Below are positions 1,074 to 21,222 of a stretch of 39,736 nucleotides of DNA, one piece after another (position 1 is the stretch's first letter; each line of letters starts with the position of its first letter). The notes under the pieces are model-generated. The model did not search any database and was not told the origin of the DNA. It worked only from the letters and a program-made list of their open reading frames with translations. Origin of the DNA: a phage; the sequence record PZ379179.1; one strand, 5' to 3'. The translations under genes and the position numbers were made by a program.

Positions 1074-1101
1074 ACATACTTAACTTTGAGAGGATATAAC
1101 T

Positions 1102-1605: not shown

Positions 1606-1781
1606 TGGTAACTTATGGCCTCTGCCAGCACCACGTCACTAACGCCCGGCTTATGGTCAAGACCGGGCAGTTAGACCACGATTGGGCTATGCGTCTCTTG
1701 AAAGTGGTCTACAGGAGACGCAAGCGTATACACGACAGTTTACACGCTAAGTGACAGACTACAGGTCATCAATGCTGGTGG

Positions 1782-1801
1782 CCTGACTGATAGTCATTAA
1801 C
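1782..1801 (+). promoter_or_regulatory. Conserved early-region box, copy 3 (CCTGACTGATAGTCATTAAC)
   Basis: One mismatch to copies 1 and 2; 8 nt upstream of the ATG at 1809. Confidence 0.35.
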
Positions 1802-1808
1802 AACTGAG

Positions 1809-2045
1809 ATGGAAGATATGAACACAATCACTGGTGCCATAACCAAAGGTTTTCGAGCAATTTTCGGTGAAACGCAAGAAGTATGCACCAATCATAAATT
1901 CGTACTTTCTTGCGTAGCAGGTGACGAGTTTGACGGGTTCGATAAACTGGTGGTTTGCGACCATTGCGGACAAGAGGCTATCCAACACTCAAACGGTAAA
2001 TTTGAATTAATAGACGATAGCCTTACAGAAGGAGACGGCGAGTAA
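1809..2045 (+). CDS. Hypothetical early protein, Cys-containing (78 aa)
   Basis: Track ORF with ATG start; contains CDHCG and other Cys residues (possible metal site). Sits where T7 has genes 0.4-0.6; no similarity recognised. Confidence 0.5.
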   Translation: MEDMNTITGAITKGFRAIFGETQEVCTNHKFVLSCVAGDEFDGFDKLVVCDHCGQEAIQHSNGKFELIDDSLTEGDGE

Positions 2046-2177
2046 CCTAAATAAACAGGAGAGAACCAAATCATAGCTTGACCATAACACTGACGTGATG
2101 GTACTGAGTGATAGACGAGAGGTCATCGACTGATAGGTGGCCTCAAAGATTACCACTTACATTGATAGGATTTAACT

Positions 2178-2282
2178 ATGAGCACTGCAATCATCTGGAC
2201 TATCTCAGGCTTCGTAGCGTGGGGAATGTTTACTCTAGTCTGCAAACTACCGGTCCTTACTCAACTGTTATGGGGCTTATGA
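2178..2282 (+). CDS. Small hydrophobic peptide (34 aa), candidate membrane protein
   Basis: ATG at 2178 with TAGGA RBS 7 nt upstream; MSTAIIWTISGFVAWGMFTLVCKLPVLTQLLWGL is one predicted TM helix. Below the track size cut-off. Confidence 0.35.
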   Translation: MSTAIIWTISGFVAWGMFTLVCKLPVLTQLLWGL

Positions 2283-2482
2283 CTATGGGTCTTGCACTAT
2301 TGATAGCCATAGGCTATGGACTTATCGCCTACGTGCTGGTGAGAGACATCAACAAATCGCGTAAAGTCTACAAATTCAAATATGTACGTCTGGGTAGCTG
2401 GACTGTACGTCAACCTAACGGACGATTCATGCGTAACTTAGCGAACGTCTGGGATATAGCAACACTTGGGAGCAAACTGTAA
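2270..2482 (+). CDS. Small membrane protein (about 65-70 aa), start uncertain
   Basis: The track ORF 2108..2482 opens with GTG and no RBS. In-frame ATGs at 2270, 2279 and 2285 (the last is 3 nt after the stop of the 2178 ORF) precede a hydrophobic segment LALLIAIGYGLIAYVLV. Stop overlaps the next ATG. Confidence 0.35.
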   Translation: MGLMTMGLALLIAIGYGLIAYVLVRDINKSRKVYKFKYVRLGSWTVRQPNGRFMRNLANVWDIATLGSKL

Positions 2483-2808
2483 TGAACAAGTCATACGGGA
2501 TTAATCTGGTACACTCTATGGACGCAGACATGCAAATGTTAAGCCTACTGGCTACCGGGTATCGTCACGGAACGTCAAGTCACTCCGCACGTCAACAGCA
2601 GGAGCGGGACCGGGTACTGCAAGCAAGACTCCGGGCTGAGGGCCATAAGTCCGAACTAATGTGTCTGGCGTATGGTGGACGACCAATCACTGACGATGGT
2701 AAACTTTTAGTCTCAGGCTGGAAGGCGATAGACCAACGGTCAACCATCAAGCACACGACTCATGGTGACTTCAGTCATCTCCACGCTAACCCGCTGATAT
2801 GCAAGTAA
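2482..2808 (+). CDS. Hypothetical early protein (108 aa)
   Basis: ATG overlaps the upstream stop (TAATG), suggesting translational coupling. Last ORF before the RNA polymerase; no recognisable domain and no kinase motifs. Confidence 0.5.
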   Translation: MNKSYGINLVHSMDADMQMLSLLATGYRHGTSSHSARQQQERDRVLQARLRAEGHKSELMCLAYGGRPITDDGKLLVSGWKAIDQRSTIKHTTHGDFSHLHANPLICK

Positions 2809-2813
2809 TTCTG

Positions 2814-2836
2814 ACTTAACTATCACTATAGGACTC
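2814..2836 (+). promoter_or_regulatory. Phage RNAP promoter upstream of the RNAP gene
   Basis: TTAACTATCACTATAGGA matches the genome-wide promoter consensus; predicted +1 G at 2831. Followed by direct repeats AAGTGAAAGAC (x2) before the RNAP start. Confidence 0.6.
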
Positions 2837-2905
2837 AAGGTCTAAGACTCCAAGTGAAAGACCAAAGAGACTTTAAGTGAAAGACTAATAACAAGGACTT
2901 TAAGT

Positions 2906-5587
2906 ATGAGCGTCATCTCTATTGACAAGCACGACTTCTCTGATGTATCGAACGCCATTGAGCCGTTTAACCTACTGGCTGACCACTACGGGCAAGACCT
3001 TGCAGTCAAACAGCTTCAGCTTGAGCACGAGGCATACACTGAAGGCGAGCGACGTTTCATCAAGAACCTTGAGAGACAGACTGAGCGAGGGGAACTGGCA
3101 GACAATCAGGTCGCCAAGCCTTTGATGCAGACTCTGGTCCCTAAGATTGCGCAAGCCGTCAAGGAGTGGCATGAAGGTCCAGACGGGAAGCTGTCAACCT
3201 CTCGTCCGAGCGTAGCGTTCACCATGTTGAGCACTGAAGAGAAGGCCGTAAAGGTCCGCTCTTTGCGCATCTCCTGCGAGTCTGCTGCGGTTATCATACT
3301 GAAGGTCATACTCTCCAAGCTGGTCAAGCCTGAAGGGATACCGATTACACCGATGGCCTCAGCGATAGGTCGCACACTTGAGGACGAAATCCGCTTCGGT
3401 CGCATCCGTGACAAGGAGAAAGAGCACTTCAAGAAGGCGATAGCTGATAACCTGAATAAGCGGGCCGGGGCGTCCTACAAGAAAGCCTACATGCAAGCGG
3501 TCGAGGCATCCATGCTGGAGCAAGGCCAACTGGAAGATGCGTGGGGGACTTGGAGTCCGACCGAGGCTGTCCACGTTGGAATCAAGATGCTGGAGATTGT
3601 CATCCAGTCCACACAACTGGTCGAGCTTAAGCGTTACGGTGCTGGCAATGCAGCGGCTGACGTTGAGATGGTCCACCTGTCAGACTTCTGGGTCAAGAAG
3701 ATGGCACAACGAGGATTCAGCCTTGCGGGTATAGCTCCAGTCTACCAGCCTTGCGTCGTTCCACCTAAGCCGTGGACTGGTGTCGTAGGCGGTGGGTACT
3801 GGGCCAAAGGACGCAGACCATTACCACTGATTCGCTTAGGGTCTAAGTCTGCGGTAGCACGCTACGAAGACGTGTATATGCCTGAAGTCTATGACGCTGT
3901 GAACATCATTCAGAATACACCTTGGAAAGTGAACAAGAAGGTTCTGGAAGTGGTGAACATGGTCGAGAAGCTGAACAACACGCCTATTGATGACATCCCT
4001 CAGATGGAACCGCTGAAGCCTGAGGACTATGCGGGTGAGACTGAAGAAGAACTCAAGGCATGGAAGAAGGCTGCTGCTGGTATCTATCGCCGCGAGAAGG
4101 CCAGACAGTCACGAAGATTGTCACTGAGCTTTATCGTCAACCAAGCGAACAAGTTCTCTCAGTTCAAGGCCATCTGGTTCCCGTATAACATGGACTGGCG
4201 CGGTCGCGTCTACGCTGTGCCGATGTTCAACCCTCAGGGTAACGACATGCAAAAGGGTCTTCTGACTCTGGCAGTCGGTAAGCCTATTGGTGCTGATGGT
4301 TTCAAATGGCTGAAGGTCCACGGTGCAAACTGCGCGGGTGTCGATAAAGTCACCTTCGAGGAGCGTATCAAGTGGGTGGAAGATAACCACGAAAACATCA
4401 TGGCTGCTGCCAAGGCACCGATGGATAGCATTGAGTGGTGGGGCAAGTTAGACTCTCCGTTCTGCTTCCTAGCGTTCTGCTTCGAGTATGCTGGCGTAAT
4501 GCACCACGGCTTGTCTTACTCCTGCTCGCTGCCGATAGCGTTCGATGGGTCCTGCTCTGGGATTCAGCACTTCAGCGCTATGCTTCGCGACCACATCGGT
4601 GGACATGCAGTAAACCTGACGCCATCCGGTAAGGTACAAGACATCTACCGAATTGTGTCTGACCGCATTGAGGAGCAGCTTAAAGTCCTGCTGATTAACG
4701 GTACTGACAACGAGATGGTCACTCACGAGGATAAGAAAACTGGTGAGATTACCGAACGTATCAAGCTGGGGACACGAGAGCTGGCCCGTCAGTGGCTGAC
4801 ATACGGTATGTCACGCAAGGTCACTAAGCGTTCAGTCATGACTCTGGCATACGGGTCGAAAGAGTACGGCTTCGCAGACCAAGTTTACGAGGACATCGTG
4901 ATGCCAGCGATTGACTCAGGGTATGGCGCTATGTTCACCGAGCCAAGCCAAGCGTCTCGATTCATGGCTAAGATGATTTGGGAAGCTGTGAGTGTGACCG
5001 TAGTTGCTGCGGTTGACGCGATGAAGTGGCTTCAAGGTGCTGCCAAGCTGCTGGCTGCTGAAGTGAAGGACAAGAAGACTGGCGAAATCCTGAAGCCATG
5101 CCTTCCGGTACACTGGGTAACACCTGATGGTTTCCCTGTCTGGCAGGAATACCGCAAGAAGGATACCACTCGTCTGAACCTGATGTTCTTAGGGTCATTC
5201 AACCTTCAGCCTACAGTCAACAAAGGAACGAAGAAAGAGCTTGACAAGCACAAGCAGGAGTCAGGCATTAGCCCTAACTTCGTCCACTCACAAGATGGTA
5301 GCCACCTGCGGAAGACTGTAGTCCACACTCACCGCAAGTATGGCGTGATGTCATTCGCAGTGATTCACGATAGCTTCGGGACCATCCCTGCTGACGCTGA
5401 GTATCTGTTCCGTGGTGTCCGTGAGACGATGGTCGAGACATACCGCGATAATGATGTGCTGCTTGACTTCTACGAGCAGTTCGAATACCAGCTTCATGAA
5501 AGTCAGCGCGACAAGTTGCCTGAGCTTCCGAAGAAAGGTAAACTGAATATCGAAGACATCTTGTCTTCAGACTTTGCATTCGCTTAA
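2906..5587 (+). CDS. Single-subunit DNA-directed RNA polymerase (T7 gene 1 homolog)
   Basis: 893 aa; collinear with recalled T7 RNAP, including AFDGSCSGIQHFSAMLRD, VIHDSFGTIPAD and the C-terminal DFAFA. AAGGA RBS 8 nt upstream. Confidence 0.97.
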   Translation: MSVISIDKHDFSDVSNAIEPFNLLADHYGQDLAVKQLQLEHEAYTEGERRFIKNLERQTERGELADNQVAKPLMQTLVPKIAQAVKEWHEGPDGKLSTSRPSVAFTMLSTEEKAVKVRSLRISCESAAVIILKVILSKLVKPEGIPITPMASAIGRTLEDEIRFGRIRDKEKEHFKKAIADNLNKRAGASYKKAYMQAVEASMLEQGQLEDAWGTWSPTEAVHVGIKMLEIVIQSTQLVELKRYGAGNAAADVEMVHLSDFWVKKMAQRGFSLAGIAPVYQPCVVPPKPWTGVVGGGYWAKGRRPLPLIRLGSKSAVARYEDVYMPEVYDAVNIIQNTPWKVNKKVLEVVNMVEKLNNTPIDDIPQMEPLKPEDYAGETEEELKAWKKAAAGIYRREKARQSRRLSLSFIVNQANKFSQFKAIWFPYNMDWRGRVYAVPMFNPQGNDMQKGLLTLAVGKPIGADGFKWLKVHGANCAGVDKVTFEERIKWVEDNHENIMAAAKAPMDSIEWWGKLDSPFCFLAFCFEYAGVMHHGLSYSCSLPIAFDGSCSGIQHFSAMLRDHIGGHAVNLTPSGKVQDIYRIVSDRIEEQLKVLLINGTDNEMVTHEDKKTGEITERIKLGTRELARQWLTYGMSRKVTKRSVMTLAYGSKEYGFADQVYEDIVMPAIDSGYGAMFTEPSQASRFMAKMIWEAVSVTVVAAVDAMKWLQGAAKLLAAEVKDKKTGEILKPCLPVHWVTPDGFPVWQEYRKKDTTRLNLMFLGSFNLQPTVNKGTKKELDKHKQESGISPNFVHSQDGSHLRKTVVHTHRKYGVMSFAVIHDSFGTIPADAEYLFRGVRETMVETYRDNDVLLDFYEQFEYQLHESQRDKLPELPKKGKLNIEDILSSDFAFA

Positions 5588-5602
5588 CAGGAGGAGAAGT
5601 AT

Positions 5603-5833
5603 ATGTCAATGAAACTTGTAGCACACAACAGGACATACAACGATGGGTCGGGACGTTGCCACGTAGAGCTGACTTATAAGGATTTAATCATTCTCCGAGA
5701 CAGATTACAGTCGGGTGTGACTGGGTGGATTCAACCTAACGAGTACAACCTTATAGCTTCGATTGATGAAGTTCTTAACGCGTGGATGGAAGACGAGCGC
5801 ATTCAGTATCCGTCATTCCCTCTAATTAGATAA
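5603..5833 (+). CDS. Hypothetical protein downstream of RNAP (76 aa)
   Basis: ATG with GGAGGAG RBS; no T7 counterpart at this position that I recognise. Confidence 0.55.
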   Translation: MSMKLVAHNRTYNDGSGRCHVELTYKDLIILRDRLQSGVTGWIQPNEYNLIASIDEVLNAWMEDERIQYPSFPLIR

Positions 5834-5843
5834 GGAGAGAGTT

Positions 5844-6059
5844 ATGAAATTTGCACACAAGCATACTGGCGTTAATGGTGGGACTCAAATCGTGACCGTA
5901 ACAGAACACAACGGCAAGGGTCTGGTGAAGACCACGGTCATCCCTACCGAGATGTCCAAGCAGCTTAACATCCCGTTCAAGACTCTTGTATATCTGGTCG
6001 AGTCCAGCCACGAGAAGTACCTGAAGGACGCAGTGTCCAAGCTGGAGCAGGCCAAATGA
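5844..6059 (+). CDS. Hypothetical protein (71 aa)
   Basis: ATG with AAGGAGA RBS; phage-typical codon usage. Confidence 0.55.
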   Translation: MKFAHKHTGVNGGTQIVTVTEHNGKGLVKTTVIPTEMSKQLNIPFKTLVYLVESSHEKYLKDAVSKLEQAK

Positions 6060-6124
6060 CAGACATACAGTTACTGGCCCTGTGGCTGGGAGCACTCGCA
6101 GTATTCACTTTAATCCAACGCAGA

Positions 6125-6147
6125 AGAGGTTAACCCTAAACTATCAC
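6125..6147 (+). promoter_or_regulatory. Phage RNAP promoter (phi1.1-like)
   Basis: CCTAAACTATCACTATAGGA; predicted +1 G at 6142. Confidence 0.7.
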
Positions 6148-6200
6148 TATAGGATTAGACTCAAGGTCATGACTCAAAGTCGTGGCCTTCATGATTAACC
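6144..6200 (+). ncRNA. Candidate RNase III processing hairpin (R1.1-like)
   Basis: GATTAGACTCAAGGTCATGACTCAAAGTCGTGGCCTTCATGATTAACC; related copies at 13375-13417 and 36131-36171. Resembles the T7 R1.1 site as I recall it (ACTCAAGGTCATTCGCAAGAGTGGCCTTTATGATTGACC). Confidence 0.45.
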
Positions 6201-6230
6201 CTAAATAAACACTACTGGAGATTTAACCGT

Positions 6231-6410
6231 ATGTATCAGAACACTATCAACTTCGAGCGCATCCGCGAACGTCAGCAGACTGAAGGTTACATCCCTAAGG
6301 GCCGCAAGCTGAACAAGACTAAACGTGGAGGAGGTATCAAAGGTGCTTTCCGTAACGCTGAAGGTAAAGACTCTATGGTTAACCAAGAGAAATACTTCGT
6401 AGGAGCATAA
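6231..6410 (+). CDS. Gene 1.1-like small basic protein (59 aa)
   Basis: GRKLNKTKR matches recalled T7 gp1.1; below the track size cut-off, found by manual translation. Confidence 0.65.
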   Translation: MYQNTINFERIRERQQTEGYIPKGRKLNKTKRGGGIKGAFRNAEGKDSMVNQEKYFVGA

Positions 6411-6414
6411 CCAA

Positions 6415-6678
6415 ATGGGCCGACTTTATAGTGGCAACCTCAACGATTTCAAAGCAGCGTGTCACAGGCTTTATCAGTTAGACTTCGCTGTCATATCTCA
6501 GGAGTTTCAAGACTATACGTCACGCCAAGAGTGTATGAAACTCAGGGTGGAGGACCGAGCTGGTAACATCTTCGCGCTTGAGACCTTCGCACACTACGAT
6601 GAAGACGTGCTGTATAATACCGCAACCGACTACCTCAACGGTCTCGCTGACCATCTCGACACATGGAGAAAAGAATAA
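6415..6678 (+). CDS. Gene 1.2-like inhibitor of host dGTPase (87 aa)
   Basis: MGRLYSGNLNDFKAA...LRVEDRAGN...HYDEDVLYN closely matches recalled T7 gp1.2 (MGRLYSGNLAAFKAA...LRIEDRSGN...HHDEDVLFN). AGGAG RBS. Confidence 0.85.
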   Translation: MGRLYSGNLNDFKAACHRLYQLDFAVISQEFQDYTSRQECMKLRVEDRAGNIFALETFAHYDEDVLYNTATDYLNGLADHLDTWRKE

Positions 6679-7706
6679 TGACAACTATCAAAACTAACCC
6701 TCACCGCGCTGTAGATTACTCTGAGTCTGGAATTAAGAAGGCACTGGAAGCAGCCGGGTCTCTGGAAGCTGAAGTGAAGTACGATGGTGTGCGCCTGAAC
6801 CTCCTGGTCCTGCGTGAAGGTGAGACCTACTGGCTTAGCCGCGAGTCGAAACCTCTACCAGCCTTGGAGTGGATGAACTCTGAGTTAGGTAATGCGTGGA
6901 CCCAAGCTGACTGGCGATGGTTCCTGCGTCAATCCGGCTACGAAGGTGTGGGCATGATGATTGATGGCGAGGTCATGGTCAAAGGTGTAGACTTCAACAC
7001 CTCCTCAGGTCTCATCCGAACGAAGTGGCTCAAGCCTAACAACGAGGAGTTCGCTGAATACTATTCGCCGGCGACTGGTGGAAAGAAGCTCCCGTTCTGG
7101 GGATCCCGGTCACGACTTCAGGTTGTGGTCTACGGTGTCATTGACATGACAACCATTGCTGACCCGAAAGCCGAAGGTCCTATCCATAGCGTAACCCGCC
7201 TGAAGGCCGAAGCTATCGTCCCTCTTCTCCAGAAATACTTCCCGGAAATCGACTGGGTTCTGTCTGAGAGTCATACAGTGTTCAACCTTGAGTCTCTTCG
7301 TGATTTGTACGAGGAGAAGCGAGCAGATGGACATGAAGGTCTGGTAGTCAAGGACCCACTGGGCAAATACAAGCGTGGTAAGAAGTCTGGTATGTGGAAG
7401 ATGAAGCCGAGTGAAGAGGCAGATGGTCACGTTGTTCGCCCGGTGTGGGGAACAGAAGGCCTAGCCAACGAAGGCATGGTCATCGGCTTTGACGTTATGC
7501 TCGAGAACGGGATGGAGGTCTCCGCAACTAACATTAGTCGCGCCCTTATGTCCGAGTTCACGGAGAACGTTAAGTCAGACCCTGACTACTACAAAGGGTG
7601 GGCTTGCCAGATTACCTACATGGAGGAGACACCAGATGGCTCATTGCGACACCCCTCGTTCTACCAGTGGCGTGGAACTGAGGATAATCCTACAGTCAAG
7701 ATTTAA
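6678..7706 (+). CDS. ATP-dependent DNA ligase (T7 gene 1.3 homolog)
   Basis: Adenylation motif KYDGVR; MTTIKTNP...SYWLSRESK...HEGLVVKDP...KRGKKSGMWKMKP...WACQITYMEETPDGSLRHPSF collinear with T7 ligase. Track ORF begins at 6663; the ATG at 6678 overlaps the gene 1.2 stop. Confidence 0.93.
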   Translation: MTTIKTNPHRAVDYSESGIKKALEAAGSLEAEVKYDGVRLNLLVLREGETYWLSRESKPLPALEWMNSELGNAWTQADWRWFLRQSGYEGVGMMIDGEVMVKGVDFNTSSGLIRTKWLKPNNEEFAEYYSPATGGKKLPFWGSRSRLQVVVYGVIDMTTIADPKAEGPIHSVTRLKAEAIVPLLQKYFPEIDWVLSESHTVFNLESLRDLYEEKRADGHEGLVVKDPLGKYKRGKKSGMWKMKPSEEADGHVVRPVWGTEGLANEGMVIGFDVMLENGMEVSATNISRALMSEFTENVKSDPDYYKGWACQITYMEETPDGSLRHPSFYQWRGTEDNPTVKI

Positions 7707-7707
7707 A

Positions 7708-8118
7708 GTGGACGAAAGGTCGGCCTCCGGGCTGGCACTCCACTCTGGACGAAAGGTAGGAAGTAAGAAGAAGTCCGGCTATTGGACGATAAACGTCAGG
7801 ACACCGTGGGGCCGAAAGCATCTACAGGTTCATAGGGTAATATGGGAGATGACACACGGTCCCATACCAGACGGCATGGAGATTGACCACATTGACCGGA
7901 ACCCTTCTAATAACAGGCTGTCCAACCTGCGACTGGTGACTCACTCCGAGAACAACCAGAACAAAGGACAGATGTCCACCAACACTACCGGAGAACGTCA
8001 CATCTCAAAGGTGAAAGGTCGAGAGCTTTACTGTATCAAGAAGGTGGTCAACGGAGAGCGCTTGGTCCTATATGCCAAGACCATAGCCGAGGCAGTAGCC
8101 TTAAGAGATTCATTATAA
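7708..8118 (+). CDS. HNH homing-type endonuclease (copy A)
   Basis: HNH core [46 protein letters not shown]. The track ORF starts inside the ligase gene; alignment with the paralog at 36668 puts the N-terminus at GTG 7708, directly after the ligase stop. No in-frame ATG is available. Confidence 0.7.
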   Translation: MDERSASGLALHSGRKVGSKKKSGYWTINVRTPWGRKHLQVHRVIWEMTHGPIPDGMEIDHIDRNPSNNRLSNLRLVTHSENNQNKGQMSTNTTGERHISKVKGRELYCIKKVVNGERLVLYAKTIAEAVALRDSL

Positions 8119-8123
8119 TGTCA

Positions 8124-8156
8124 ACCCAGTGGTCTTATGACTGCTGGGTTTCTTTG
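8124..8156 (+). terminator. Rho-independent terminator (TE-like early terminator)
   Basis: ACCCAGTGG-loop-CTGCTGGGT hairpin followed by TTTCTTTGCG, resembling the T7 TE tail TTTCTGCG; sits after the ligase/HNH unit. Confidence 0.6.
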
Positions 8157-8177
8157 CGTACGGGCCACCAGCTAGAC

Positions 8178-8200
8178 CCTAAGCTATCACTATAGGACAA
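8178..8200 (+). promoter_or_regulatory. Phage RNAP promoter
   Basis: CCTAAGCTATCACTATAGGACAA; predicted +1 G at 8195. Confidence 0.65.
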
Positions 8201-8226
8201 CCCTAACCGACCAAAGGAGAAACCTT

Positions 8227-8481
8227 ATGTCTAAAAACTTAATGTTCAACCGATTTACTCGAAGCTTCCACCTGTCGCATAGCCCATTCAGCTTCCATAA
8301 ATCTAATCAACCATTACCCCGCTTTGGTAAGACAGTGGCTCTGTCTCCCACAGTTCATGCGCTAGTCACCCGCAAGTCTATGCTGAAGGCTATGGATAAA
8401 GAACAAGTCGATGTACCTGTTGTCGTTACAAAATGGCCTCGCATTAAGCTGGCCCTTCTGGTAATTAAGGAGGTGTTTTGA
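8227..8481 (+). CDS. Hypothetical protein (84 aa), gene 1.6 position
   Basis: ATG with GGAG RBS 7 nt upstream; no recognisable domain. Confidence 0.5.
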   Translation: MSKNLMFNRFTRSFHLSHSPFSFHKSNQPLPRFGKTVALSPTVHALVTRKSMLKAMDKEQVDVPVVVTKWPRIKLALLVIKEVF

Positions 8482-8819
8482 TGGCATATTGTGATAGCAC
8501 CACATACTGTGAAGCATGTAATGGTGATGACCGCTTCCCACACGTTGGTAAACTTGTAGGTAACAAGCTGCAAGAAATTGATGGTGTACGCAAGCCATCC
8601 CACTATCAGGTCTTTGATGGCGTGGAATCCATTGAGATTATCGCACGGTCAATGACTGTGAGTGAGTTCCGTGGGTTCTGCATGGGTAACGTCCTGAAGT
8701 ATCGACTCCGGGCTGGTAAGAAGTCAGAGCTGGCAACTATGGAGAAGGACCTGAACAAAGCAGCCTTCTATCAGGAGCTATTCGACCTGCACAAAGGTAA
8801 GTGCTATGACTCCGAGTAA
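8481..8819 (+). CDS. DUF3310 / gp1.7-like protein (putative nucleotide kinase family)
   Basis: 112 aa from the ATG at 8481 (the track ORF opens at TTG 8478); AAGGAGGTG RBS. Motif FCMGNVLKYRLRAGKK resembles the DUF3310 signature associated with T7 gp1.7. Confidence 0.55.
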   Translation: MAYCDSTTYCEACNGDDRFPHVGKLVGNKLQEIDGVRKPSHYQVFDGVESIEIIARSMTVSEFRGFCMGNVLKYRLRAGKKSELATMEKDLNKAAFYQELFDLHKGKCYDSE

Positions 8820-8901
8820 GTGGTGTGAAATGATGTTCGAGAAGACAGGTAACACTGACTACCTTGAATTGTATAACCAGTGGAAGGAGCGCGGTTTATG
8901 A
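8806..8901 (+). CDS. Small ORF (31 aa), gene 1.8 position
   Basis: ATG 8806, stop overlapping the gp2 start; [31 protein letters not shown]. Short and without homology support. Confidence 0.3.
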
Positions 8902-9056
8902 CTGAGGTTGAGAAGAAATACATCGTGGAGCTTGAGGGTCGCGTTCAGTCCTTCGAGGTTCCGTTGTACGCAAAGTCTCTTGAAGAGGCTACCCTGAAGT
9001 CCCAAGAGTATGAGGACGCTGGGTTTGTGGTCGGACGGATTCGCCCTGAGACCTAA
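8898..9056 (+). CDS. Gp2-like inhibitor of host RNA polymerase (52 aa)
   Basis: [14 protein letters not shown]...[10 protein letters not shown] matches recalled T7 Gp2 (SFEVPIYAETLDEA...AGFEVTRVRP). Below the track size cut-off. Confidence 0.8.
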
Positions 9057-9074
9057 ACTATCACTGTAGGACAG
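9052..9074 (+). promoter_or_regulatory. Phage RNAP promoter, variant (CACTGTAGG)
   Basis: CTAAACTATCACTGTAGGACAGA, with G at -2 relative to the consensus; upstream of the SSB gene. Confidence 0.55.
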
Positions 9075-9114
9075 ACGTCCAGTTAGTAACTTTTAAATTA
9101 GGAGATTTACACCG

Positions 9115-9809
9115 ATGGCTAAAGAGCAACTGAAGACTTTCACCACTCCGGTAGCTGGTATCGTTGAGCCTTACGCATGGCTGAACAAAGCAGACACCAA
9201 GTTTAACGAGCGTGGTGAGCATAAGGTTAACCTGACGTTCGACCTGAGCGACCCGAAGGTCCGTAAGATGATTGATGTCTTACAGAAGATTCACGACGAT
9301 GCGTATGCAAAAGCACTCGCAGACCACGAGAAGAACCCCCTCAGGTTCAGCGTGGCAAGAAGCCTATTGAACCACGAGAAGGCGACATGCCGTGGATTGA
9401 GAATGGTGACGGTACTGTTACCCTTAAGTTTAAATGCTTTGCGTCTTACCTGAAAGACGGCAAGTCCGAGCCTATCGTATTACGGTTCTACGACACCGAT
9501 GCTAAACTCATCCGTGACGTCCCGAATATCTGCGCTGGGTCTAAGCTGAAGGTCAAGTTTAAAGTCCTGCCGTTCAAGTGGAACGCTGCGACTGGTGCAA
9601 GCGTTAAGCTCCAGCTTGAGTCCTGCCTTCTGGTAGAACTGAAGGAGTGGAAAGGCGATGGTGGCGATGGTGGCTGGGGTGATGATGAAGACCTTGGTAC
9701 TGGCTACAAAGCGTCAACCGTTGGTGACTTCGGTGGTGATGACTTTGGGTCTGACGATGGTTCCGAAGGTGGTGACGACTCCAGCTCTGATGGCGATTAC
9801 GACTTCTAA
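9115..9809 (+). CDS. ssDNA-binding protein (T7 gp2.5 homolog), frame interrupted at a C5 run
   Basis: Track ORFs 9115..9453 and 9387..9809 together align with T7 gp2.5 (N-terminal part in one frame; PPQVQRGKKP...MPWIENGDGTVTLKFKC...GSKLKVKFKVLPFKWNAATGASVKLQLE and the acidic C-terminus ending DGDYDF in the other). The frames meet at CCCCC 9336-9340. Confidence 0.85.
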
Positions 9810-10261
9810 TGGCCCAATGGTCTGCAAAACGGGGGCACTCTGTGGGTGCCTACCGCTCTGGACTTGAAGCCAAGAACCAGCAGTGGCTGGAACAGAACGG
9901 CGTCAAAGCGGAGTACGAAAGCCATTATATCAACTATGTGATTCCGGCTTCCGACCACAAGTACACACCAGATTTTATCCTTCCTAACGGTATCATCGTG
10001 GAGACCAAAGGTATCTTCGATAGTGATGACCGTAAGAAGCACCTTCTGGTACGAGAACAGCACCCAGAGTTAGACATCCGGTTCGTGTTCTCAAGTTCAC
10101 GCTCCAAGTTATACAAAGGGTCTCCAACCACGTATGGCGCATGGTGCGAAAAGAACGGCTATAAGTATGCCGATAAATTCATCCCGGTTGAGTGGCTTCG
10201 AGAGGCGACTGTACGTCTGCCTTCAGGTATACTCATCCCCAAGAAGAAAGGAGTTAAGTGA
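9809..10261 (+). CDS. Endonuclease I, Holliday-junction resolvase (T7 gene 3 homolog)
   Basis: 150 aa; VGAYRSGLE...YVIPASDHKYTPDFILPNGIIVETKG...DDRKKHLLVREQHPELDIRFVFSSSRSKLYKGSPTTYG nearly collinear with T7 endonuclease I. Confidence 0.93.
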   Translation: MAQWSAKRGHSVGAYRSGLEAKNQQWLEQNGVKAEYESHYINYVIPASDHKYTPDFILPNGIIVETKGIFDSDDRKKHLLVREQHPELDIRFVFSSSRSKLYKGSPTTYGAWCEKNGYKYADKFIPVEWLREATVRLPSGILIPKKKGVK

Positions 10262-10485
10262 TGACTCAAGAATTTAAGGTCGTTCGTAAGCGTCTGACCA
10301 TTGATAAAATCCCGGTAGGCTATGCGTTTATCGTCCACGGTAAGCCGGGTGAAGTGTACGTGAAGATTAGTAACTCTCACGTCTTCAACCATAAGTTGCT
10401 CCAGATGCACACCACGGATGCTAACCGCTTCCAACGTCATCTGAACCTCGTAGCTGTAGAGCTGGTGGTGTACGATGGTGAGTAA
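10261..10485 (+). CDS. Hypothetical protein (74 aa) between endonuclease I and lysozyme
   Basis: ATG at 10261 overlaps the upstream stop (TGATG), with AGGAG 7 nt upstream; the track ORF opens at GTG 10258. No T7 gene occupies this position. Confidence 0.5.
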   Translation: MTQEFKVVRKRLTIDKIPVGYAFIVHGKPGEVYVKISNSHVFNHKLLQMHTTDANRFQRHLNLVAVELVVYDGE

Positions 10486-10933
10486 GGTTCAGTTCAACCC
10501 ACGGTCCCTGACTGACGCTATCTTCGTTCACTGTAGCGCAACCAAGCCAGAGATGGACATCGGGGTAGAGACCATCCGTATGTGGCACAAGCAGCAAGGC
10601 TGGCTGGATGTAGGCTACCACTTTATCATCAAGCGTGACGGTACTGTGGAAGAGGGTCGCCCGGTCAATGTCGTAGGGTCACACGTTAAGGACTGGAACT
10701 CCAAGTCCGTAGGCGTCTGCCTTGTAGGTGGCATCAACGCTAAGGGTCAGTTTGAAGCTAACTTCACTCCAGCCCAGATGAACTCCCTGCGCAACAAGCT
10801 GGCTGACCTGAAGGTCCTGTATCCTCAGGCAGAAATCAAAGCACACCATGACGTAGCACCTAAGGCGTGTCCAAGTTTTGACTTGCGATGGTGGCTAGAT
10901 ACCAATGAACTGGTAACTTCCGACCGTGGTTAA
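10475..10933 (+). CDS. Lysozyme / N-acetylmuramoyl-L-alanine amidase (T7 gene 3.5 homolog)
   Basis: 152 aa; DAIFVHCSATKP...WLDVGYHFIIKRDGTVEEGR...GVCLVGG...APKACPSFDL...ELVTSDRG matches T7 lysozyme. Confidence 0.95.
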   Translation: MVSKVQFNPRSLTDAIFVHCSATKPEMDIGVETIRMWHKQQGWLDVGYHFIIKRDGTVEEGRPVNVVGSHVKDWNSKSVGVCLVGGINAKGQFEANFTPAQMNSLRNKLADLKVLYPQAEIKAHHDVAPKACPSFDLRWWLDTNELVTSDRG

Positions 10934-10954
10934 TAAACTCTAAAGGAGAGTGAT

Positions 10955-11218
10955 ATGGCAACTTTAACAAAAAAAGAACGGGCATGGTTGAACGAATTAC
11001 AGGACGTTCTTGATCGCTGTCCATCACCGAAAAAAATTGGCTTTTACACCATTGGCGATAAAAGCATTTACCTGTATGACCTGCGCCGCATGGATGAAAT
11101 AATGGAGGCTCTTGATAATCGTTCGTCGATGGATTGGTGTGTTGCTGTTCATGATATGAATGCAGGGTTTGATGAAAAGATTTTGTTCCCCTCATCAGTT
11201 GAAAGCACTGCGGGTTAA
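10955..11218 (+). CDS. Hypothetical accessory protein (87 aa) with atypical codon usage
   Basis: ATG with AAGGAGAG RBS. Lower GC and AAA-rich lysine codons (ACAAAAAAAGAA, CCGAAAAAAATT), in contrast to the AAG-rich backbone. No recognisable domain. Confidence 0.6.
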   Translation: MATLTKKERAWLNELQDVLDRCPSPKKIGFYTIGDKSIYLYDLRRMDEIMEALDNRSSMDWCVAVHDMNAGFDEKILFPSSVESTAG

Positions 11219-11228
11219 GGACTAACAC

Positions 11229-11426
11229 ATGACCACTATTACAAAAGAGCGACTACTGACAATCAAGCAGTGGCGCGAAACATACGGACATGGTAGCAAC
11301 GTTGTACTGCCAGCAGAAGAAGCGGAAGAACTGGAACGAATTGCACTTGCGTCACTGGAAGCTGGCATGAAGGCACGTCAAGCTGACACCAAAGCTGACC
11401 AGTTGGCTCAGTTCTTCAAAGCCTAA
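11229..11426 (+). CDS. Hypothetical accessory protein (65 aa)
   Basis: ATG with AAGGA RBS 8 nt upstream; the stop codon is part of the following promoter. No recognisable domain. Confidence 0.55.
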   Translation: MTTITKERLLTIKQWRETYGHGSNVVLPAEEAEELERIALASLEAGMKARQADTKADQLAQFFKA

Positions 11427-11444
11427 ACTATCACCTTAGGGATT
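11422..11444 (+). promoter_or_regulatory. Phage RNAP promoter, variant (CACCTTAGGG)
   Basis: CCTAAACTATCACCTTAGGGATT; upstream of the primase-helicase gene. Confidence 0.5.
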
Positions 11445-11491
11445 GGACCTTGAGTCCTTTCCCTTTGTTCGCATTTGTGAGTAAGGAGTGA

Positions 11492-13195
<1,704 letters not shown>

Positions 13196-13374
13196 GGAGG
13201 AGTACATTGCTAAGAAAACTTAAAGCTCGATACCATAGGTTCATGTACAAATGGTGGAGTGATGAAGCAACCTGCCTGTCCAACATTCTGGGAGACCAGA
13301 GGTTCGACTCTAAGGCATGGAAGAAAGCTAACCGGAAGTTTATGTACCACTTCTTGCGTACAGACTTCTAGGTC

Positions 13375-13417
13375 TAGACTCAAGGTCATTCATAGCGAGT
13401 GGCCTTTATGATTAGAC
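13375..13417 (+). ncRNA. Candidate RNase III processing hairpin
   Basis: TAGACTCAAGGTCATTCATAGCGAGTGGCCTTTATGATTAGAC, closely resembling the recalled T7 R1.1 site; lies between the gene 4 and gene 5 homologs. Confidence 0.45.
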
Positions 13418-13435
13418 TAAAGCGGAGGATTAACC

Positions 13436-15607
13436 ATGTTTGACCTTAAGAGTATCTGGGGTTCTGACATCGAGACCAACGGTCTCCTTGATACAGTCTC
13501 CCAGTTTCACTGTGGGGTCCTGATTAACGCCGAGTCGAATGAGACCCTTAAGTATGGGGTAGCTCCGATGGTCGGTATCGTCGGTGGCTTCAAAGAGTAT
13601 GTGCAGAAGGTGGAAGAGATTGCCGCATCACCTGATGGTATGCTGGTATTCCACAACGGTATCAACTATGACGTCCCGGCTATTGACAAGCTGAAGCGTC
13701 TGTACTTCGGGAAACGCTTTAACTTCCCGAAACACAAGATGATTGATACCTTGGTGCTGGGTCGCTTGATGTATCCCAACATTAAGTTCTCAGACATGGG
13801 CGCGGTGAAAGCTGGTCGTCTGCCTCCTAAGATGATGGGACGCCAGTCTCTTGAGGCTTGGGGCTATCGTCTCGGTGAGATGAAAGGTGAGTACAAACAC
13901 GATTACGTTGCCAAATGCAAGGCTGAAGGTATTGAATATAAGGCTGGTGACGAATGGTTGTTCCCATCTCAGGAGATGCTGGACTATAACGTTCAAGACG
14001 TTGTGGTCACACTGGCGTTGTTCAAGAAGTTCCTGACTGACAAGTATTACTTCCAGTCTGAACAGTTCGCTTTCGACCAGATTTATGCGTTGCGTCTGGA
14101 ACATGATGCTGCGTGGACCTGTGCGAAGATGGAACGTAACGGCTATCCGATGAACACCGAGATGGTCGAAGGCTTATATCGTGAACTAACCGTCAAACGT
14201 GCAGAGCTACTGGACAAGCTGCGCTCTACTTTCGGTAGCTGGTATGCACCAAAGGGAGGCAAGGAGTTCTTCAGGCATCCACGGACAGGTAAGGATCTTC
14301 CGAAGTATCCGAGAGTCGTGTATCCCAAGGTCGGTGGCATCTTTAAGAAGCCTAAGAACAAAGCTCAACGCTTAGGTCTTGAACCTTGTGAACGCGATAC
14401 GCGAGACACGATGGAGGGAGCACCATTCACGCCAATCACTTACGTTGAGTTTAATCCGGGAAGCGGAGACCACTTAGCGAAAGTCCTGATGGAGCGTGGC
14501 TGGGAGCCTGTGGACTTTACTGACACCGGGAAACCTGTAGTCGATGACGAGACGTTGGAACACGTTAAGTTACCAGACGCAGAGGCTCAGGCTTGCGTAG
14601 AGCTGGTCCGTGAGTATCTGGTAGTCCAGAAGCGCATCGGTCAGGCGGCTGAAGGTAAGAACGCATGGTTGAAACTTGTAGGTCCAGACGGACGTATGCA
14701 CGGCTCAATAAACCCATGCGGGGCAGTAACCGGACGTGCGACCCATAGTTCACCAAACATGGCTCAGGTCCCGGCTAACGGTGCTCCATATGGTGAGACT
14801 TGCCGTGGTGCTTTCGGTGCAGCGTGGAACAAGAAGGACGGTAAGCCAGACCCTTGGATTCAAGTTGGTGTGGATGCCTCAGGTCTTGAGCTTCGTTGTC
14901 TTGGGAACAGAGCGGCTCCGTTTGATGGTGGTGCATATGCGAAGACTGTGGTAGAAGGTGACATCCACTGGGCCAACGCAGTAAACGCTGGGTTAGCACC
15001 TAACGTCCAACGCGATAAGTCTAACCACGACCATGAGGCTTTCCGTAACAACGCTAAGACGTTCATCTACGCGTTCCTGTATGGTGCAGGGGCCGCTAAG
15101 ATTGGACTGATAGTAGGCGGTGGTAAGAAGGAAGGTTCAGCTCTGATGAAGAAATTCATTGAGGGTACACCAGCCATCAAGGACCTCAGGGAAGCTGTGA
15201 GTAATACGTTAATCTCAGACTCTAAGTGGGTGGACGGAGAGAACATCGTTAAGTGGAAACGCCGTTGGCTGCGTGGACTTGATGGTCGCCGCATACACAT
15301 CCGGTCGCCACACTCAGCACTTAACGCCCTACTTCAGGGTGATGGTGCGGTTGTCTGTAAGCACTGGATGGTACTGACTGAGAAGAAACTTGAAGAGGCT
15401 GGTTACGGTAACGGATGGGACGGCGACTTTGCGCTAATGGCTTGGATTCACGATGAATTGCAGATAGCGTGCCGTACTCAGGAGATAGCAGAAGATGTCG
15501 TCCGTATTGCTCAAGAGGCGATGCGCGAGGTCGGACGCTTCTATAACTTCAAGTGTGAACTTGATACGGAGGGTAAGATTGGACCAACGTGGAAAGAGTG
15601 TCATTGA
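13436..15607 (+). CDS. DNA polymerase (T7 gene 5 homolog, family A)
   Basis: 723 aa; exonuclease and polymerase motifs (DIETNGL, DASGLELRCL, IHDELQ); GCGGAGGAT RBS. Confidence 0.96.
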   Translation: MFDLKSIWGSDIETNGLLDTVSQFHCGVLINAESNETLKYGVAPMVGIVGGFKEYVQKVEEIAASPDGMLVFHNGINYDVPAIDKLKRLYFGKRFNFPKHKMIDTLVLGRLMYPNIKFSDMGAVKAGRLPPKMMGRQSLEAWGYRLGEMKGEYKHDYVAKCKAEGIEYKAGDEWLFPSQEMLDYNVQDVVVTLALFKKFLTDKYYFQSEQFAFDQIYALRLEHDAAWTCAKMERNGYPMNTEMVEGLYRELTVKRAELLDKLRSTFGSWYAPKGGKEFFRHPRTGKDLPKYPRVVYPKVGGIFKKPKNKAQRLGLEPCERDTRDTMEGAPFTPITYVEFNPGSGDHLAKVLMERGWEPVDFTDTGKPVVDDETLEHVKLPDAEAQACVELVREYLVVQKRIGQAAEGKNAWLKLVGPDGRMHGSINPCGAVTGRATHSSPNMAQVPANGAPYGETCRGAFGAAWNKKDGKPDPWIQVGVDASGLELRCLGNRAAPFDGGAYAKTVVEGDIHWANAVNAGLAPNVQRDKSNHDHEAFRNNAKTFIYAFLYGAGAAKIGLIVGGGKKEGSALMKKFIEGTPAIKDLREAVSNTLISDSKWVDGENIVKWKRRWLRGLDGRRIHIRSPHSALNALLQGDGAVVCKHWMVLTEKKLEEAGYGNGWDGDFALMAWIHDELQIACRTQEIAEDVVRIAQEAMREVGRFYNFKCELDTEGKIGPTWKECH

Positions 15608-18673: not shown

Positions 18674-20242
18674 ATGGCTGAACGTGAAGGATTTGCTGCT
18701 GAAGGCGCGAAGTCAGTTTATGATAGACTGAAGAACGGTAGACAGCCATACGAGACACGCGCTCAGAACTGTGCTGCTGTCACTATCCCGTCACTGTTTC
18801 CTAAGGAGTCCGACAACTCGTCTACGGAATACGTGACGCCGTGGCAAGCTGTAGGTGCTCGCTGTTTGAACAACTTGGCTGCAAAGCTGATGTTGGCGTT
18901 ATTCCCTCAGTCACCGTGGATGCGACTGACAGTCTCCGAATATGAGGCTAAGACATTAAGTCAGGACTCAGAGGCTGCTGCTCGTGTTGACGAGGGGCTT
19001 GCTATGGTCGAGCGTGTGTTGATGGCCTACATGGAGACAAACAGTTTCCGTGTTCCATTGTTCGAAGCTCTGAAGCAGCTTATAGTCTCCGGTAACTGTC
19101 TGCTCTACATTCCAGAGCCTGAACAGGGAACCTACAGTCCTATGCGAATGTACCGCTTAGTGTCCTACGTTGTCCAACGTGATGCGTTCGGTAACATCTT
19201 GCAGATTGTGACTCTCGACAAGGTAGCGTTTAGTGCTCTACCGGAAGACGTGAAGTCTCAACTCAACGCAGACGACTATGAGCCTGACACCGAGCTTGAA
19301 GTGTATACGCACATATACCGTCATGACGACGAGTATCTGCGTTACGAGGAAGTGGAAGGCATTGAGGTGACAGGGACCGATGGTTCCTACCCGCTGACTG
19401 CATGTCCATACATCCCTGTACGAATGGTTCGACTGGATGGTGAAGACTACGGTCGTTCTTATTGCGAGGAGTATCTGGGGGACCTGAACTCGCTGGAGAC
19501 GATTACAGAAGCTATCACCAAAATGGCTAAGGTAGCCTCCAAGGTGGTGGGCCTCGTTAACCCGAACGGTATCACGCAACCTCGTCGTCTGAACAAGGCG
19601 GCTACAGGTGAGTTCGTGGCTGGTCGCGTTGAGGACATCAACTTCCTGCAACTGACGAAAGGTCAGGACTTTACGATTGCCAAGTCGGTGGCTGACGCTA
19701 TCGAGCAACGTTTAGGATGGGCCTTCCTTCTTAATAGTGCTGTTCAGCGTAATGCTGAGCGCGTGACTGCTGAAGAGATTCGTTATGTTGCTGGCGAACT
19801 GGAGGCGACCTTAGGTGGCGTGTACTCAGTGCAGTCACAAGAGCTTCAGTTACCTATAGTCCGTGTGCTGATGAACCAACTTCAGTCTGCTGGCATGATT
19901 CCTGACCTTCCGAAAGAAGCGGTAGAGCCTACTGTCTCCACTGGTCTGGAAGCTCTGGGCCGTGGTCAGGACTTAGAGAAGCTAACTCAGGCAGTCAACA
20001 TGATGACTGGGCTACAACCTCTGCAACAGGACCCAGACATTAACTTGCCGACCCTGAAGCTGCGACTGCTGAATGCCTTAGGTATTGACACTGCTGGTTT
20101 GCTGCTGACGCAAGACGAGAAGATTCAGCGCATGGCTGAGCAGTCGTCACAACAGGCAGTTGTCCAAGGTGCTAGTGCTGCTGGTGCTAACATGGGTGCT
20201 GCTGTAGGTCAGGGAGCTGGTGAGGACATGGCTCAAGCCTAA
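18674..20242 (+). CDS. Portal (head-to-tail connector) protein (T7 gene 8 homolog)
   Basis: 522 aa; ETRAQNCA...TIPSLFPK...TPWQAVGAR...LYRLVSYVVQRDAFGN...RMVRLDGEDYGRSY...ERVTAEEIRYVA collinear with T7 gp8. Confidence 0.96.
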   Translation: MAEREGFAAEGAKSVYDRLKNGRQPYETRAQNCAAVTIPSLFPKESDNSSTEYVTPWQAVGARCLNNLAAKLMLALFPQSPWMRLTVSEYEAKTLSQDSEAAARVDEGLAMVERVLMAYMETNSFRVPLFEALKQLIVSGNCLLYIPEPEQGTYSPMRMYRLVSYVVQRDAFGNILQIVTLDKVAFSALPEDVKSQLNADDYEPDTELEVYTHIYRHDDEYLRYEEVEGIEVTGTDGSYPLTACPYIPVRMVRLDGEDYGRSYCEEYLGDLNSLETITEAITKMAKVASKVVGLVNPNGITQPRRLNKAATGEFVAGRVEDINFLQLTKGQDFTIAKSVADAIEQRLGWAFLLNSAVQRNAERVTAEEIRYVAGELEATLGGVYSVQSQELQLPIVRVLMNQLQSAGMIPDLPKEAVEPTVSTGLEALGRGQDLEKLTQAVNMMTGLQPLQQDPDINLPTLKLRLLNALGIDTAGLLLTQDEKIQRMAEQSSQQAVVQGASAAGANMGAAVGQGAGEDMAQA

Positions 20243-20260
20243 ACTATCACTATAGGAACA
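20238..20260 (+). promoter_or_regulatory. Phage RNAP promoter (phi9-like)
   Basis: CCTAAACTATCACTATAGGAACA; the portal stop codon TAA is embedded in the promoter. Confidence 0.7.
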
Positions 20261-20336
20261 ACACCGTAAGTCCAACTCTAGGTGAGTCAACTAGACGAGG
20301 CAGGTGTTACCTATTAACTACCAAAGGAGAGACTTA

Positions 20337-21221
20337 ATGTCCCAATCAGTTTATGCCGAGTTCGGCGTTAGCTCTAATGCAATCACTGGTTCCGTTGAGG
20401 ACCTGAACGAACACCAGAAGTCTATGCTTGAACAGGACGTAGCGGTACGTGATGGCGACGACGCTATTACCTTCAAGCAACTGGAAGCCGAAAACGAAGA
20501 GGCTGCCGAAGAAGACGAGAACGTCGAAGAGACTGAAGGTGAAGAAGACCACGAGTCCGATGACGAAGAGTCTGAGACCGATGGTGAACAACCTGAGTTC
20601 GTCGAACTGGGTGATGCACCTAAAGAGCTGACCGAAAGTGTCACCGCTCTGGATGAAAACGAAGCTGCATTTGACGACATGGTGTCTTCTGCTGTAGAAG
20701 CTGGCAAGGTCACTGCTGATGAAATTACCGCTATCAAGGCTGAATACGCCAAGGACGGTAAGCTGTCTGACGCATCCTACGCTAAGTTGCAGGAAGCAGG
20801 TTACACCAAGCGCTTCGTAGATTCGTTTGTCCGTGGTCAGGAAGCTCTGGCTGAACAGTATGCCGCTGGTGTGGTTCGCTACGCTGGTGGTGCTGAACAG
20901 TTTAATCGCATCCTGTCACACCTTGAGTCCAACGACCCGTCAACTCGTGAAGCATTGGAAGCTGCCATCGTTCGTAAGGACATTGCGACTACCAAAGCTC
21001 TGCTGAATCTGGCTGGCAAGACTCTGGGTAAAGCTGTGGGTGTTAAACCTCAGCGTACCATCACCACTCAGGCTAAACCTGTGGTCGCACCTAAGGCTCC
21101 TCAGACCGAAGCATTCAGCTCCAAGGCTGACATGATTAAGGCTATGAGTGACCCGCGATACCTGCGTGACGCTAAATACACGATGGAAGTTCGCGCTAAG
21201 GTAGCTGCCTCAAGCCTGTAG
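20337..21221 (+). CDS. Capsid assembly (scaffolding) protein (T7 gene 9 homolog)
   Basis: 294 aa from the ATG at 20337 with AAGGAGAG RBS (the track ORF opens at GTG 20304); strongly acidic central region; lies between portal and capsid. Confidence 0.85.
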   Translation: MSQSVYAEFGVSSNAITGSVEDLNEHQKSMLEQDVAVRDGDDAITFKQLEAENEEAAEEDENVEETEGEEDHESDDEESETDGEQPEFVELGDAPKELTESVTALDENEAAFDDMVSSAVEAGKVTADEITAIKAEYAKDGKLSDASYAKLQEAGYTKRFVDSFVRGQEALAEQYAAGVVRYAGGAEQFNRILSHLESNDPSTREALEAAIVRKDIATTKALLNLAGKTLGKAVGVKPQRTITTQAKPVVAPKAPQTEAFSSKADMIKAMSDPRYLRDAKYTMEVRAKVAASSL

Positions 21222-21222
21222 G

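Follow-up and report, generated by a model that had tools for sequence, protein, structure and literature searches.

Sequence evidence for the capture of a prophage Orf-87 gene by a Kayfunavirus within resident gene 3.7

Introduction

We consider it likely that a block of prophage DNA replaced the 5′ end of the resident gene 3.7 in the phage genome PZ379179.1, and that, of the two open reading frames now present at this site, the second (ORF2) is a by-product of the exchange; the first (ORF1) may be an effector of lytic growth. The stretch of DNA analysed, which we call the window, is 39,736 nucleotides long and represents a complete Kayfunavirus genome of 39.7 kb (K1F-like, T7-group). The region from 8000 to 15000 is approximately 96% identical to Kayfunavirus phages such as vB_EcoP-101136BS1, LM33_P1 and U8. 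In an initial annotation based on the letters of the window, the two ORFs were described as a two-gene accessory cassette of atypical codon usage that had been recently acquired by horizontal transfer. The features required for the argument are as follows.

9056-9072, + strand: K1F-type phage RNA-polymerase promoter-like site, the nearest upstream of ORF1
10475-10933, + strand: lysozyme/amidase, gp3.5 homologue, left backbone flank (Pfam Amidase_2, E = 1.5e-15)
10940-10949, + strand: left crossover microhomology CTAAAGGAGA, the RBS of resident gene 3.7
10950-11347, + strand: donor-specific DNA from the exo-xis ('ea') region of a lambdoid/P22-like prophage
10955-11218, + strand: ORF1, 87 aa, an intact gene of the Orf-87 family (PHROG 1714)
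11229-11426, + strand: ORF2, 65 aa, an in-frame chimera
11349-11362, + strand: right crossover region GCGTCACTGGAAGC, codons A-S-L-E-A
11363-11426, + strand: 3′ remnant of resident gene 3.7 (…GMKARQADTKADQLAQFFKA-stop)
11426-11442, + strand: K1F-type phage promoter-like site before the primase/helicase, belonging to the backbone and overlapping the ORF2 stop codon
11495-13195, + strand: primase/helicase, gp4 homologue, right backbone flank

Results

The slot between lysozyme and primase

The two ORFs and the strong Shine-Dalgarno sites reported for them were all found at their coordinates: AAGGAG lies 6 nt 5′ of the ATG of ORF1, AAGGA lies 7 nt 5′ of the ATG of ORF2, and the ORFs are spaced 10 nt apart. 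The same annotation had equated their position, between the lysozyme (labelled amidase or endolysin in relatives) and the primase, with the slot of T7 gene 3.8, and the T7 annotation does show gene 3.8 there. Gene 3.8 encodes an HNH endonuclease, is placed between genes 3.5 and 4 and, like ORF1 and ORF2, is non-core and variable. No similarity of sequence or domains links ORF1 or ORF2 to T7 gp3.8, and both lack an HNH motif and a Pfam match.

In related Kayfunaviruses, the interval between lysozyme and primase is occupied by a gene of 66-71 aa, which corresponds to PHROG 1950, is named gp3.7 in K1F, EcoDS1 and Dev2, and occurs in 183 phage records. Deletions and frameshifts of gp3.7 are common among contigs of ~39 kb, and seven such natural alleles are either frameshifted or shortened by internal in-frame deletions, with both conserved ends left in place in the latter. 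Because of these natural alleles, Kayfunavirus gene 3.7 appears to be dispensable and the site permissive. A second variable slot is located just 5′ of ORF1, between endonuclease I and the lysozyme (10258-10485). It holds a 75-aa ORF with a GTG start (phrog_15211) in the window and a 163-aa gene (phrog_16385) in 101136BS1, and only the C-terminal ~68 aa are common to the two.

Expression context

A search with the K1F-type promoter consensus AACTATCACTATAGGGA, allowing up to 3 mismatches, returned 11 matches on the + strand genome-wide (2818, 6139, 8182, 9056, 11426, 17404, 20242, 21227, 26008, 33284 and 38966), compared with 0.10 expected. The sites of the early/class II group have GGAC or GGAT replacing GGGA. 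The same search found no promoter-like site between 9056 and 11426, and the site at 11426 is conserved in ZG49 and 101136BS1. The class II unit headed by the site at 9056 comprises the SSB gene, endonuclease I, the 75-aa ORF, the lysozyme, ORF1 and ORF2. Given the sites at 9056 and 11426, ORF1 and ORF2 would be the last class II genes, and the phage promoter at 9056 would serve ORF1 as it would the rest of the unit.

The insert itself contains no terminator and only three weak promoter-like sites, compared with 1.3 ± 1.2 expected, and two of the three are on the wrong strand. Autonomous expression of the moron type was therefore rejected, and the insert should not be considered a classical moron, because it has no convincing sigma-70 promoter or intrinsic terminator of its own. 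We also judged an antisense ORF of 122 aa that overlaps ORF1 (10860-11228, minus strand) to be a chance product, because the substitutions relative to the prophage copies sit at third codon positions of the + strand (9/10 in the comparison with strain 90-9281 and 5/5 in that with 689R5). Moreover, every annotated gene of the compared region is on one strand in T7, ZG49 and 101136BS1, which was counted against this ORF.

Prophage origin of the block

BLAST homology to prophage DNA spans positions 10942-11362, and nowhere else in the 39.7 kb is there a match to E. coli genomes. In a megablast search of the whole genome, run in two halves against 5,426 complete E. coli genomes, every sampled match fell within 10941-11364, bases 20001-39736 gave zero matches, and the numbers of matching records and genomes were equal to those obtained with the block alone. 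The block was matched in 1,519 of the 5,426 genomes, always in the exo-xis or 'ea' region of lambdoid or P22-like prophages, with a best identity of 96.4% over the full length. The ORF1 part alone (10942-11228) was matched in 976 of these genomes at identities of up to 99.0%, and the ORF2 part was up to 95.1% identical to E. coli copies. Because the best full-length donor is only 96.4% identical, the true donor is unsampled.

Among the 50,697 phage records of INPHARED, none covers at least 80% of positions 10900-11500 in a megablast search. Kayfunaviruses match the flanks only, and their lysozyme-to-primase interval is 253 bp shorter than that of the window. The middle part is matched at 94-98% by lambdoid, Stx-converting and P22-like phages, by Nonanavirus PJ16 and by two records of ~100-110 kb that are probably phage-plasmids. 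The block is absent from all other Kayfunavirus/Autographiviridae records searched, and neither IMG/VR nor metagenome contigs contain the junction strings TAAACTCTAAAGGAGAGTGATATGGC and …ATTGCACTTGCGTCACTGGAAGCTGG. Across INPHARED, IMG/VR, the metagenome contigs and comparisons with the exact ORF2 protein, the arrangement was found in one genome only.

In the donors, the block is part of the early-left operon, with recombination genes (erf/RecT, anti-RecBCD) on one side and xis/int on the other, and this context was seen in E. coli 90-9281, in Salmonella phage ST64T (Orf-87) and in Edwardsiella and Serratia prophages. The donor context and the confinement of the E. coli matches to this block indicate that the direction of transfer was from the prophage pool to the Kayfunavirus. 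Horizontal acquisition of the block by this phage is strongly supported by these comparisons. Its recency, as initially proposed, is borne out by the identity to prophage DNA (96.4% for the block and 99.0% for ORF1) and by the absence of the block from the Kayfunavirus relatives searched.

The codon usage of the two ORFs was compared with that of 799 in-frame backbone segments of 86 codons each. ORF1 has the lowest GC (0.420) and the second lowest GC3 (0.402) among the 45 + strand genes. Relative to the backbone segments, its percentile is 0.3 for GC, 3.5 for GC3 and 1.3 for a CAI-like index. Lysine is encoded by AAA and AAG at a ratio of 5:1 in ORF1, compared with 190:526 in the backbone (Fisher p = 0.006). 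ORF2 is inside the backbone range (33rd percentile for GC, 13th for the CAI-like index). The atypical codon usage that had been attributed to the pair is thus true of ORF1, for which it is extreme, and not of ORF2. Composition alone would not prove the origin of ORF1, because certain early genes (342-560, 1809-2045 and 2108-2482) are nearly as A/T-rich. The origin is settled by the direct DNA comparisons rather than by composition.

The genes of the prophage exo-xis region have the appearance of cassettes whose boundaries are conserved. In three donors of the E. coli type (PJ16, 689R5 and 90-9281), the genes located 5′ of Orf-87 terminate in K-G-E-stop (AAAGGAGAGTGA), and this string at the same time forms the RBS of the next gene. 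The gene 3′ of Orf-87 starts 9-10 nt past its stop codon in every locus examined except that of Chivirus FSL SP-030, where the two genes overlap by 4 nt, and in the four enterobacterial donors that were translated it usually begins MTTITKE…. The BLAST matches break at ~11248-11251 and at 11362, which are recurrent mosaic breakpoints.

Junctions resolved to the base

Both junctions were compared base by base, and a slash marks the junction in the strings below. On the left, the backbone of ZG49 reads ...AACTCTAAAGGAGA/ACAACTCAATG (with the start codon of gene 3.7 included, the backbone reads …TAATAAACTCTAAAGGAGA/ACAAC…ATG(gp3.7)), and the donors read ...CTAAAGGAGA/GTGATATGGCA (PJ16) or AAAGGAGA (90-9281). 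The window has backbone sequence through CTAAAGGAGA (10940-10949) and donor sequence to its right, so that the Shine-Dalgarno site of ORF1 straddles the junction. The string CTAAAGGAGA is identical to the RBS/'KGE-stop' boundary 5′ of the prophage Orf-87 gene. In the prophages, it constitutes both the Orf-87 RBS and the 'K-G-E-stop' end of whichever gene precedes.

On the right, the donors read …ATTGCACTgGCaTCgCTGGAAGC/AGAGCC… and the backbone reads …ACCATCGCGTCACTGGAAGC/TGGCATG…. The crossover region matches the backbone at 14/14 positions and the sampled donors (GCaTCgCTGGAAGC) at 12/14. The sequence follows the donors as far as 11347 and the backbone from 11349 onwards: donor-specific bases are last seen at 11345-11346, the backbone-type bases are 11351 and 11354, and base 11348 (T) agrees with neither parent reference. 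From 11363 to 11426, the window is identical, in frame, to gp3.7 of ZG49, 101136BS1 and K1F. The exchange brought in ~399 bp and removed ~146 bp, the 5′ end of gene 3.7, for a net gain of 253 bp. The source of the incoming DNA was a prophage of the lambdoid or P22-like kind or else a phage that has the same module.

Common ancestry of gp3.7 and the prophage N-terminal module was considered as an explanation for the shared ASLEA codons and was rejected. A BLASTP comparison of gp3.7 with the prophage N-module proteins produced no alignment, and diverged gp3.7 members lack the ASLEA motif. For these two reasons, the match is best regarded as a coincidental microhomology.

ORF2 is a fusion of a prophage leader and the gp3.7 tail

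By its alignments, ORF2 is a fusion made by recombination and not an acquired gene. Approximately residues 1-40 represent a prophage N-terminal leader, and approximately residues 41-65 (the last ~24) represent the gp3.7 C-terminus. The PHROG matches are split in the same manner, with phrog_60, phrog_3323 and phrog_660 on aa 1-45 to 51 and phrog_1950 on aa 30-64, the latter covering profile positions 39-70 of 70 only. The leader is a module of ~45 aa that is common to prophage genes of the Eaa, DUF550 (dATP/dGTP pyrophosphohydrolase) and DUF551 types ('MTTITKERLL…ARIALASLEAE'), and it is ~96% identical to ORF2 aa 1-45. Prophages have a mosaic breakpoint at its usual end, ALASLEAE, and the crossover in the window is at the same spot.

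Unlike the prophage leader proteins, ORF2 lacks a C-terminal effector domain and carries the substitutions P21H and A36E. His21 (window 11290) and Glu36 (window 11335) are unique to ORF2, since nearly all of the 23 aligned prophage homologues have P21 and all of them have A36. None of the domains PF13935, PF04447 and PF04448 was found in ORF2 by the Pfam search, and it shares just the ~45-aa leader with Ead/Ea22-like, Eaa, DUF550 and DUF551 proteins; its Pfam and NCBIfam matches are sub-threshold and unrelated, and it has no HNH motif. With K1F gp3.7, ORF2 shares the last ~24 codons, the stop codon, the downstream promoter and the lysozyme-primase position; it keeps the C-terminal …QL.(Q)FFK motif and its place between the lysozyme and the gene-4 promoter. 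Compared with K1F gp3.7, it lacks the conserved N-terminal two-thirds (MIKLIEFLGRLVVRGYRR…), and its pI is shifted from 10.1 to 5.8. The conserved N-terminal segment MIKLIEFLGRLVVRGY is missing, and the gp3.7 profile is not matched at full length. The initial description of the pair as a two-gene cassette is not supported, because only ORF1 is a complete import and ORF2 joins a prophage N-module to the gp3.7 C-terminus. Part of ORF2 is thus derived from a conserved protein of the T7 group (K1F group).

Among 5.8 billion sequences, no protein identical or nearly identical to ORF2 at full length was found, and AF2 produced a low-confidence two-helix model (pLDDT 67, pTM 0.26). ORF2 is probably a by-product, and the function of gp3.7 has probably been lost. 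The donor-derived part of ORF2 is more diverged from E. coli copies (95.1%) than is ORF1 (99.0%), which would be compatible with relaxed constraint, in numbers too small for significance.

ORF1 is an intact member of the Orf-87 family

ORF1 is, as judged from the alignments, the only complete imported gene. It matches phrog_1714 with E = 9.6e-51, residues 1-87 aligning with profile positions 1-87 of 87, and its protein is 100% identical to the copies in phages 689R5 and AVIO78A. All 5 nt differences from 689R5 are at third codon positions of the + strand and are synonymous; the synonymous-only pattern rests on just 3-7 nt differences and has low statistical power. In an alignment of 32 sequences, ORF1 carries 11/11 family-invariant columns, the invariant residues being W11, C22-P-S-P, G29-F-Y-T-I-G-D, Y41-D42, F78-P-S and the C-terminal G87. 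ORF1 thus appears to be intact and constrained. It shares with ST64T Orf-87 the full length of 87 aa, the invariant residues and the 10-nt spacing to the next start. The contexts of the two differ: in prophages, Orf-87 belongs to the early-left operon of PL, whereas ORF1 lies among the class II (DNA metabolism) genes of a virulent podovirus of the T7 group, with a promoter of the phage-RNAP type.

A profile search of 1.84 billion representatives placed the PHROG 1714 family in 217 clusters at 50% identity. Nearly all members are standalone proteins of 80-90 aa in early or accessory regions of phages and prophages. We looked to domain fusions within the 217 clusters for a functional clue and discarded them, since the longer members have no Pfam domain and look like gene-call read-throughs. 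The family is present in temperate phages, in virulent lineages (Nonanavirus PJ16, Chivirus FSL SP-030 and records of 77-141 kb), in Lederbergvirus, and in records of 99.6 and 109 kb that are probably phage-plasmids. A tblastn search with ORF1 returned no Autographiviridae phage among the matches listed (60 of 81 records), and its organism summary contained no T7-group name.

ORF1 is acidic (pI 4.8), and its AF2 model (pLDDT 93.6) has the order α1-β1-β2-α2-α3-β3, for which fold comparison identified no structural relative. No family in Pfam, NCBIfam or PADLOC matches ORF1, and no conserved partner gene was found in the loci compared. Our literature search found no paper on PHROG 1714, and the supplements of two accessory-gene screens do not contain the Orf-87 motif.

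Discussion

How the exchange may have occurred

Phages of the T7 group degrade host DNA and recombine efficiently by means of the gp6 exonuclease, gp2.5 annealing and the gp4 helicase. The exchange may have taken place during lytic growth within a lysogen or in a mixed infection, and the likely mechanism would be short-homology annealing, in which this T7-type recombination machinery uses DNA of the degraded host or prophage. The observed replacement is exactly what would result from annealing at the two microhomologies, the RBS and ASLEA.

Transfers of this kind are not without precedent. According to a survey published in 2021 (PMC8136500), they occur mainly in virulent phages with large genomes. 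As in the cases of the survey, a small accessory gene has recently passed between phages that differ in lifestyle. What sets the present case apart is its recipient, a T7-like phage of 40 kb, and the resolution of both breakpoints to single bases. We therefore regard it as a clean case of gene capture that is not unprecedented, involving a family, PHROG 1714, that is catalogued but uncharacterised.

What ORF1 contributes

The main competing reading, to which we give a low probability, is that ORF1 is a neutral passenger of no benefit to this phage, delivered into a dispensable gene by accidental recombination at microhomologies and intact only through its recency. With the arrangement occurring in a single genome, selection for it is not demonstrable, and the substitutions are likewise too few to demonstrate selection. 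In addition, the frequent natural deletions and frameshifts of gp3.7 imply that the site tolerates damage, and the net gain is merely 253 bp. However, ORF1 arrived complete with its start codon and RBS, and the family has been kept independently in several virulent phage lineages, which argues for a use in lytic growth. With low confidence, we regard ORF1 as a lytic-growth effector.

The lambda exo-xis region, which is the positional equivalent of the block in the donors, is reported to affect the physiology of the host and the choice between lysis and lysogeny (PMC7093339, PMC4699033). For ORF1, predicted to be a small, acidic, compact alpha/beta protein, an anti-defence or host-takeover role is a plausible and reasonable guess. 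A role as an enzyme seems unlikely. More specifically, and as a tentative suggestion, ORF1 might act in early lytic growth by binding a conserved enterobacterial host or defence factor, for takeover or anti-defence. A role as a lysogeny function or as a prophage defence gene seems unlikely. In its developed form, the latter reading holds that ORF1 is a superinfection-exclusion or defence gene of the prophage that the lytic phage now uses against competitors. Its prophage origin is in keeping with this, and lambdoid accessory regions do carry defence genes (cf. PMC8585504, BstA). However, Orf-87 is part of the repressed early-left (PL) operon, between the recombination genes and xis/int, it has no promoter or terminator of its own, its family is present in virulent phages, and PADLOC returned no match; the reading is accordingly very improbable.

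It is equally hard to believe that ORF1 and ORF2 form a functional two-gene module of a toxin-antitoxin-like or anti-defence type. The ORFs are adjacent, 10 nt apart, each with its own Shine-Dalgarno site, and the same N-terminal module follows ORF1 in 119 E. coli genomes. However, the last ~24 aa of ORF2 come from gp3.7, the fusion was found nowhere else, and two positions that are otherwise conserved are substituted in ORF2. In the prophage mosaic, ORF1 and the N-module each form a unit of their own, divided by a breakpoint at ~11248-11251, and many different genes follow ORF1. This variability of the downstream gene in the donors, together with the absence of any toxin-antitoxin or defence HMM match for either ORF, speaks against the toxin-antitoxin-like function that had been suggested at the outset.

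The quality of the record bears on a last alternative. The gp2.5 SSB gene (9115-9809) is split into the overlapping ORFs 9115-9453 and 9387-9809 by a 1-nt deletion near 9338 relative to vB_EcoP-101136BS1 (GAACCCACCTC -> GAACCC-CCTC). Because gp2.5 is essential in T7, this frameshift is probably a sequencing indel error, and it flags the sequence quality of the record. Such an error in an essential gene of the same sequence, and the very common occurrence of the donor sequence in E. coli hosts, could be taken to favour an assembly artefact in which host prophage reads were mis-joined into the phage contig, but this is most unlikely: two mis-joins would be needed just 420 bp apart, each at 8-14 bp of shared sequence (below the usual k-mers of assemblers), within one gene, with the RBS and reading frame preserved and the flanks perfectly collinear.

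Conclusions

This case provides a base-resolved natural example of a strictly virulent T7-group phage with a small genome that has taken up a gene belonging to the temperate-phage pool of the host, with no more than 8-14 bp of shared sequence used in the capture. The case is relevant to how phages of 'low gene flux' come by accessory genes, and to safety assessments where therapeutic phages are propagated on lysogenic hosts. It also indicates that gene 3.7 of Kayfunavirus is a usable insertion site. Furthermore, the confident orphan fold, the occurrence in 976/5,426 E. coli genomes and the presence in several virulent lineages flag Orf-87 / PHROG 1714 for screens of anti-defence and host-takeover functions.

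A broader and rather speculative proposal is that the Orf-87 proteins represent a new class of small orphan-fold effectors that inhibit a conserved enterobacterial defence or host factor in lytic growth and are useful enough to have been repeatedly captured, with the exo-xis boundaries acting as portable recombination linkers. If this is true, independent captures would have been made by lambdoid, P22-like, Chi-like, 9NA-like and large virulent phages, by probable phage-plasmids and now by a T7-like phage, and the 'KGE-stop/RBS' and 'ALASLEAE' linkers would let even virulent phages sample the exo-xis gene pool.
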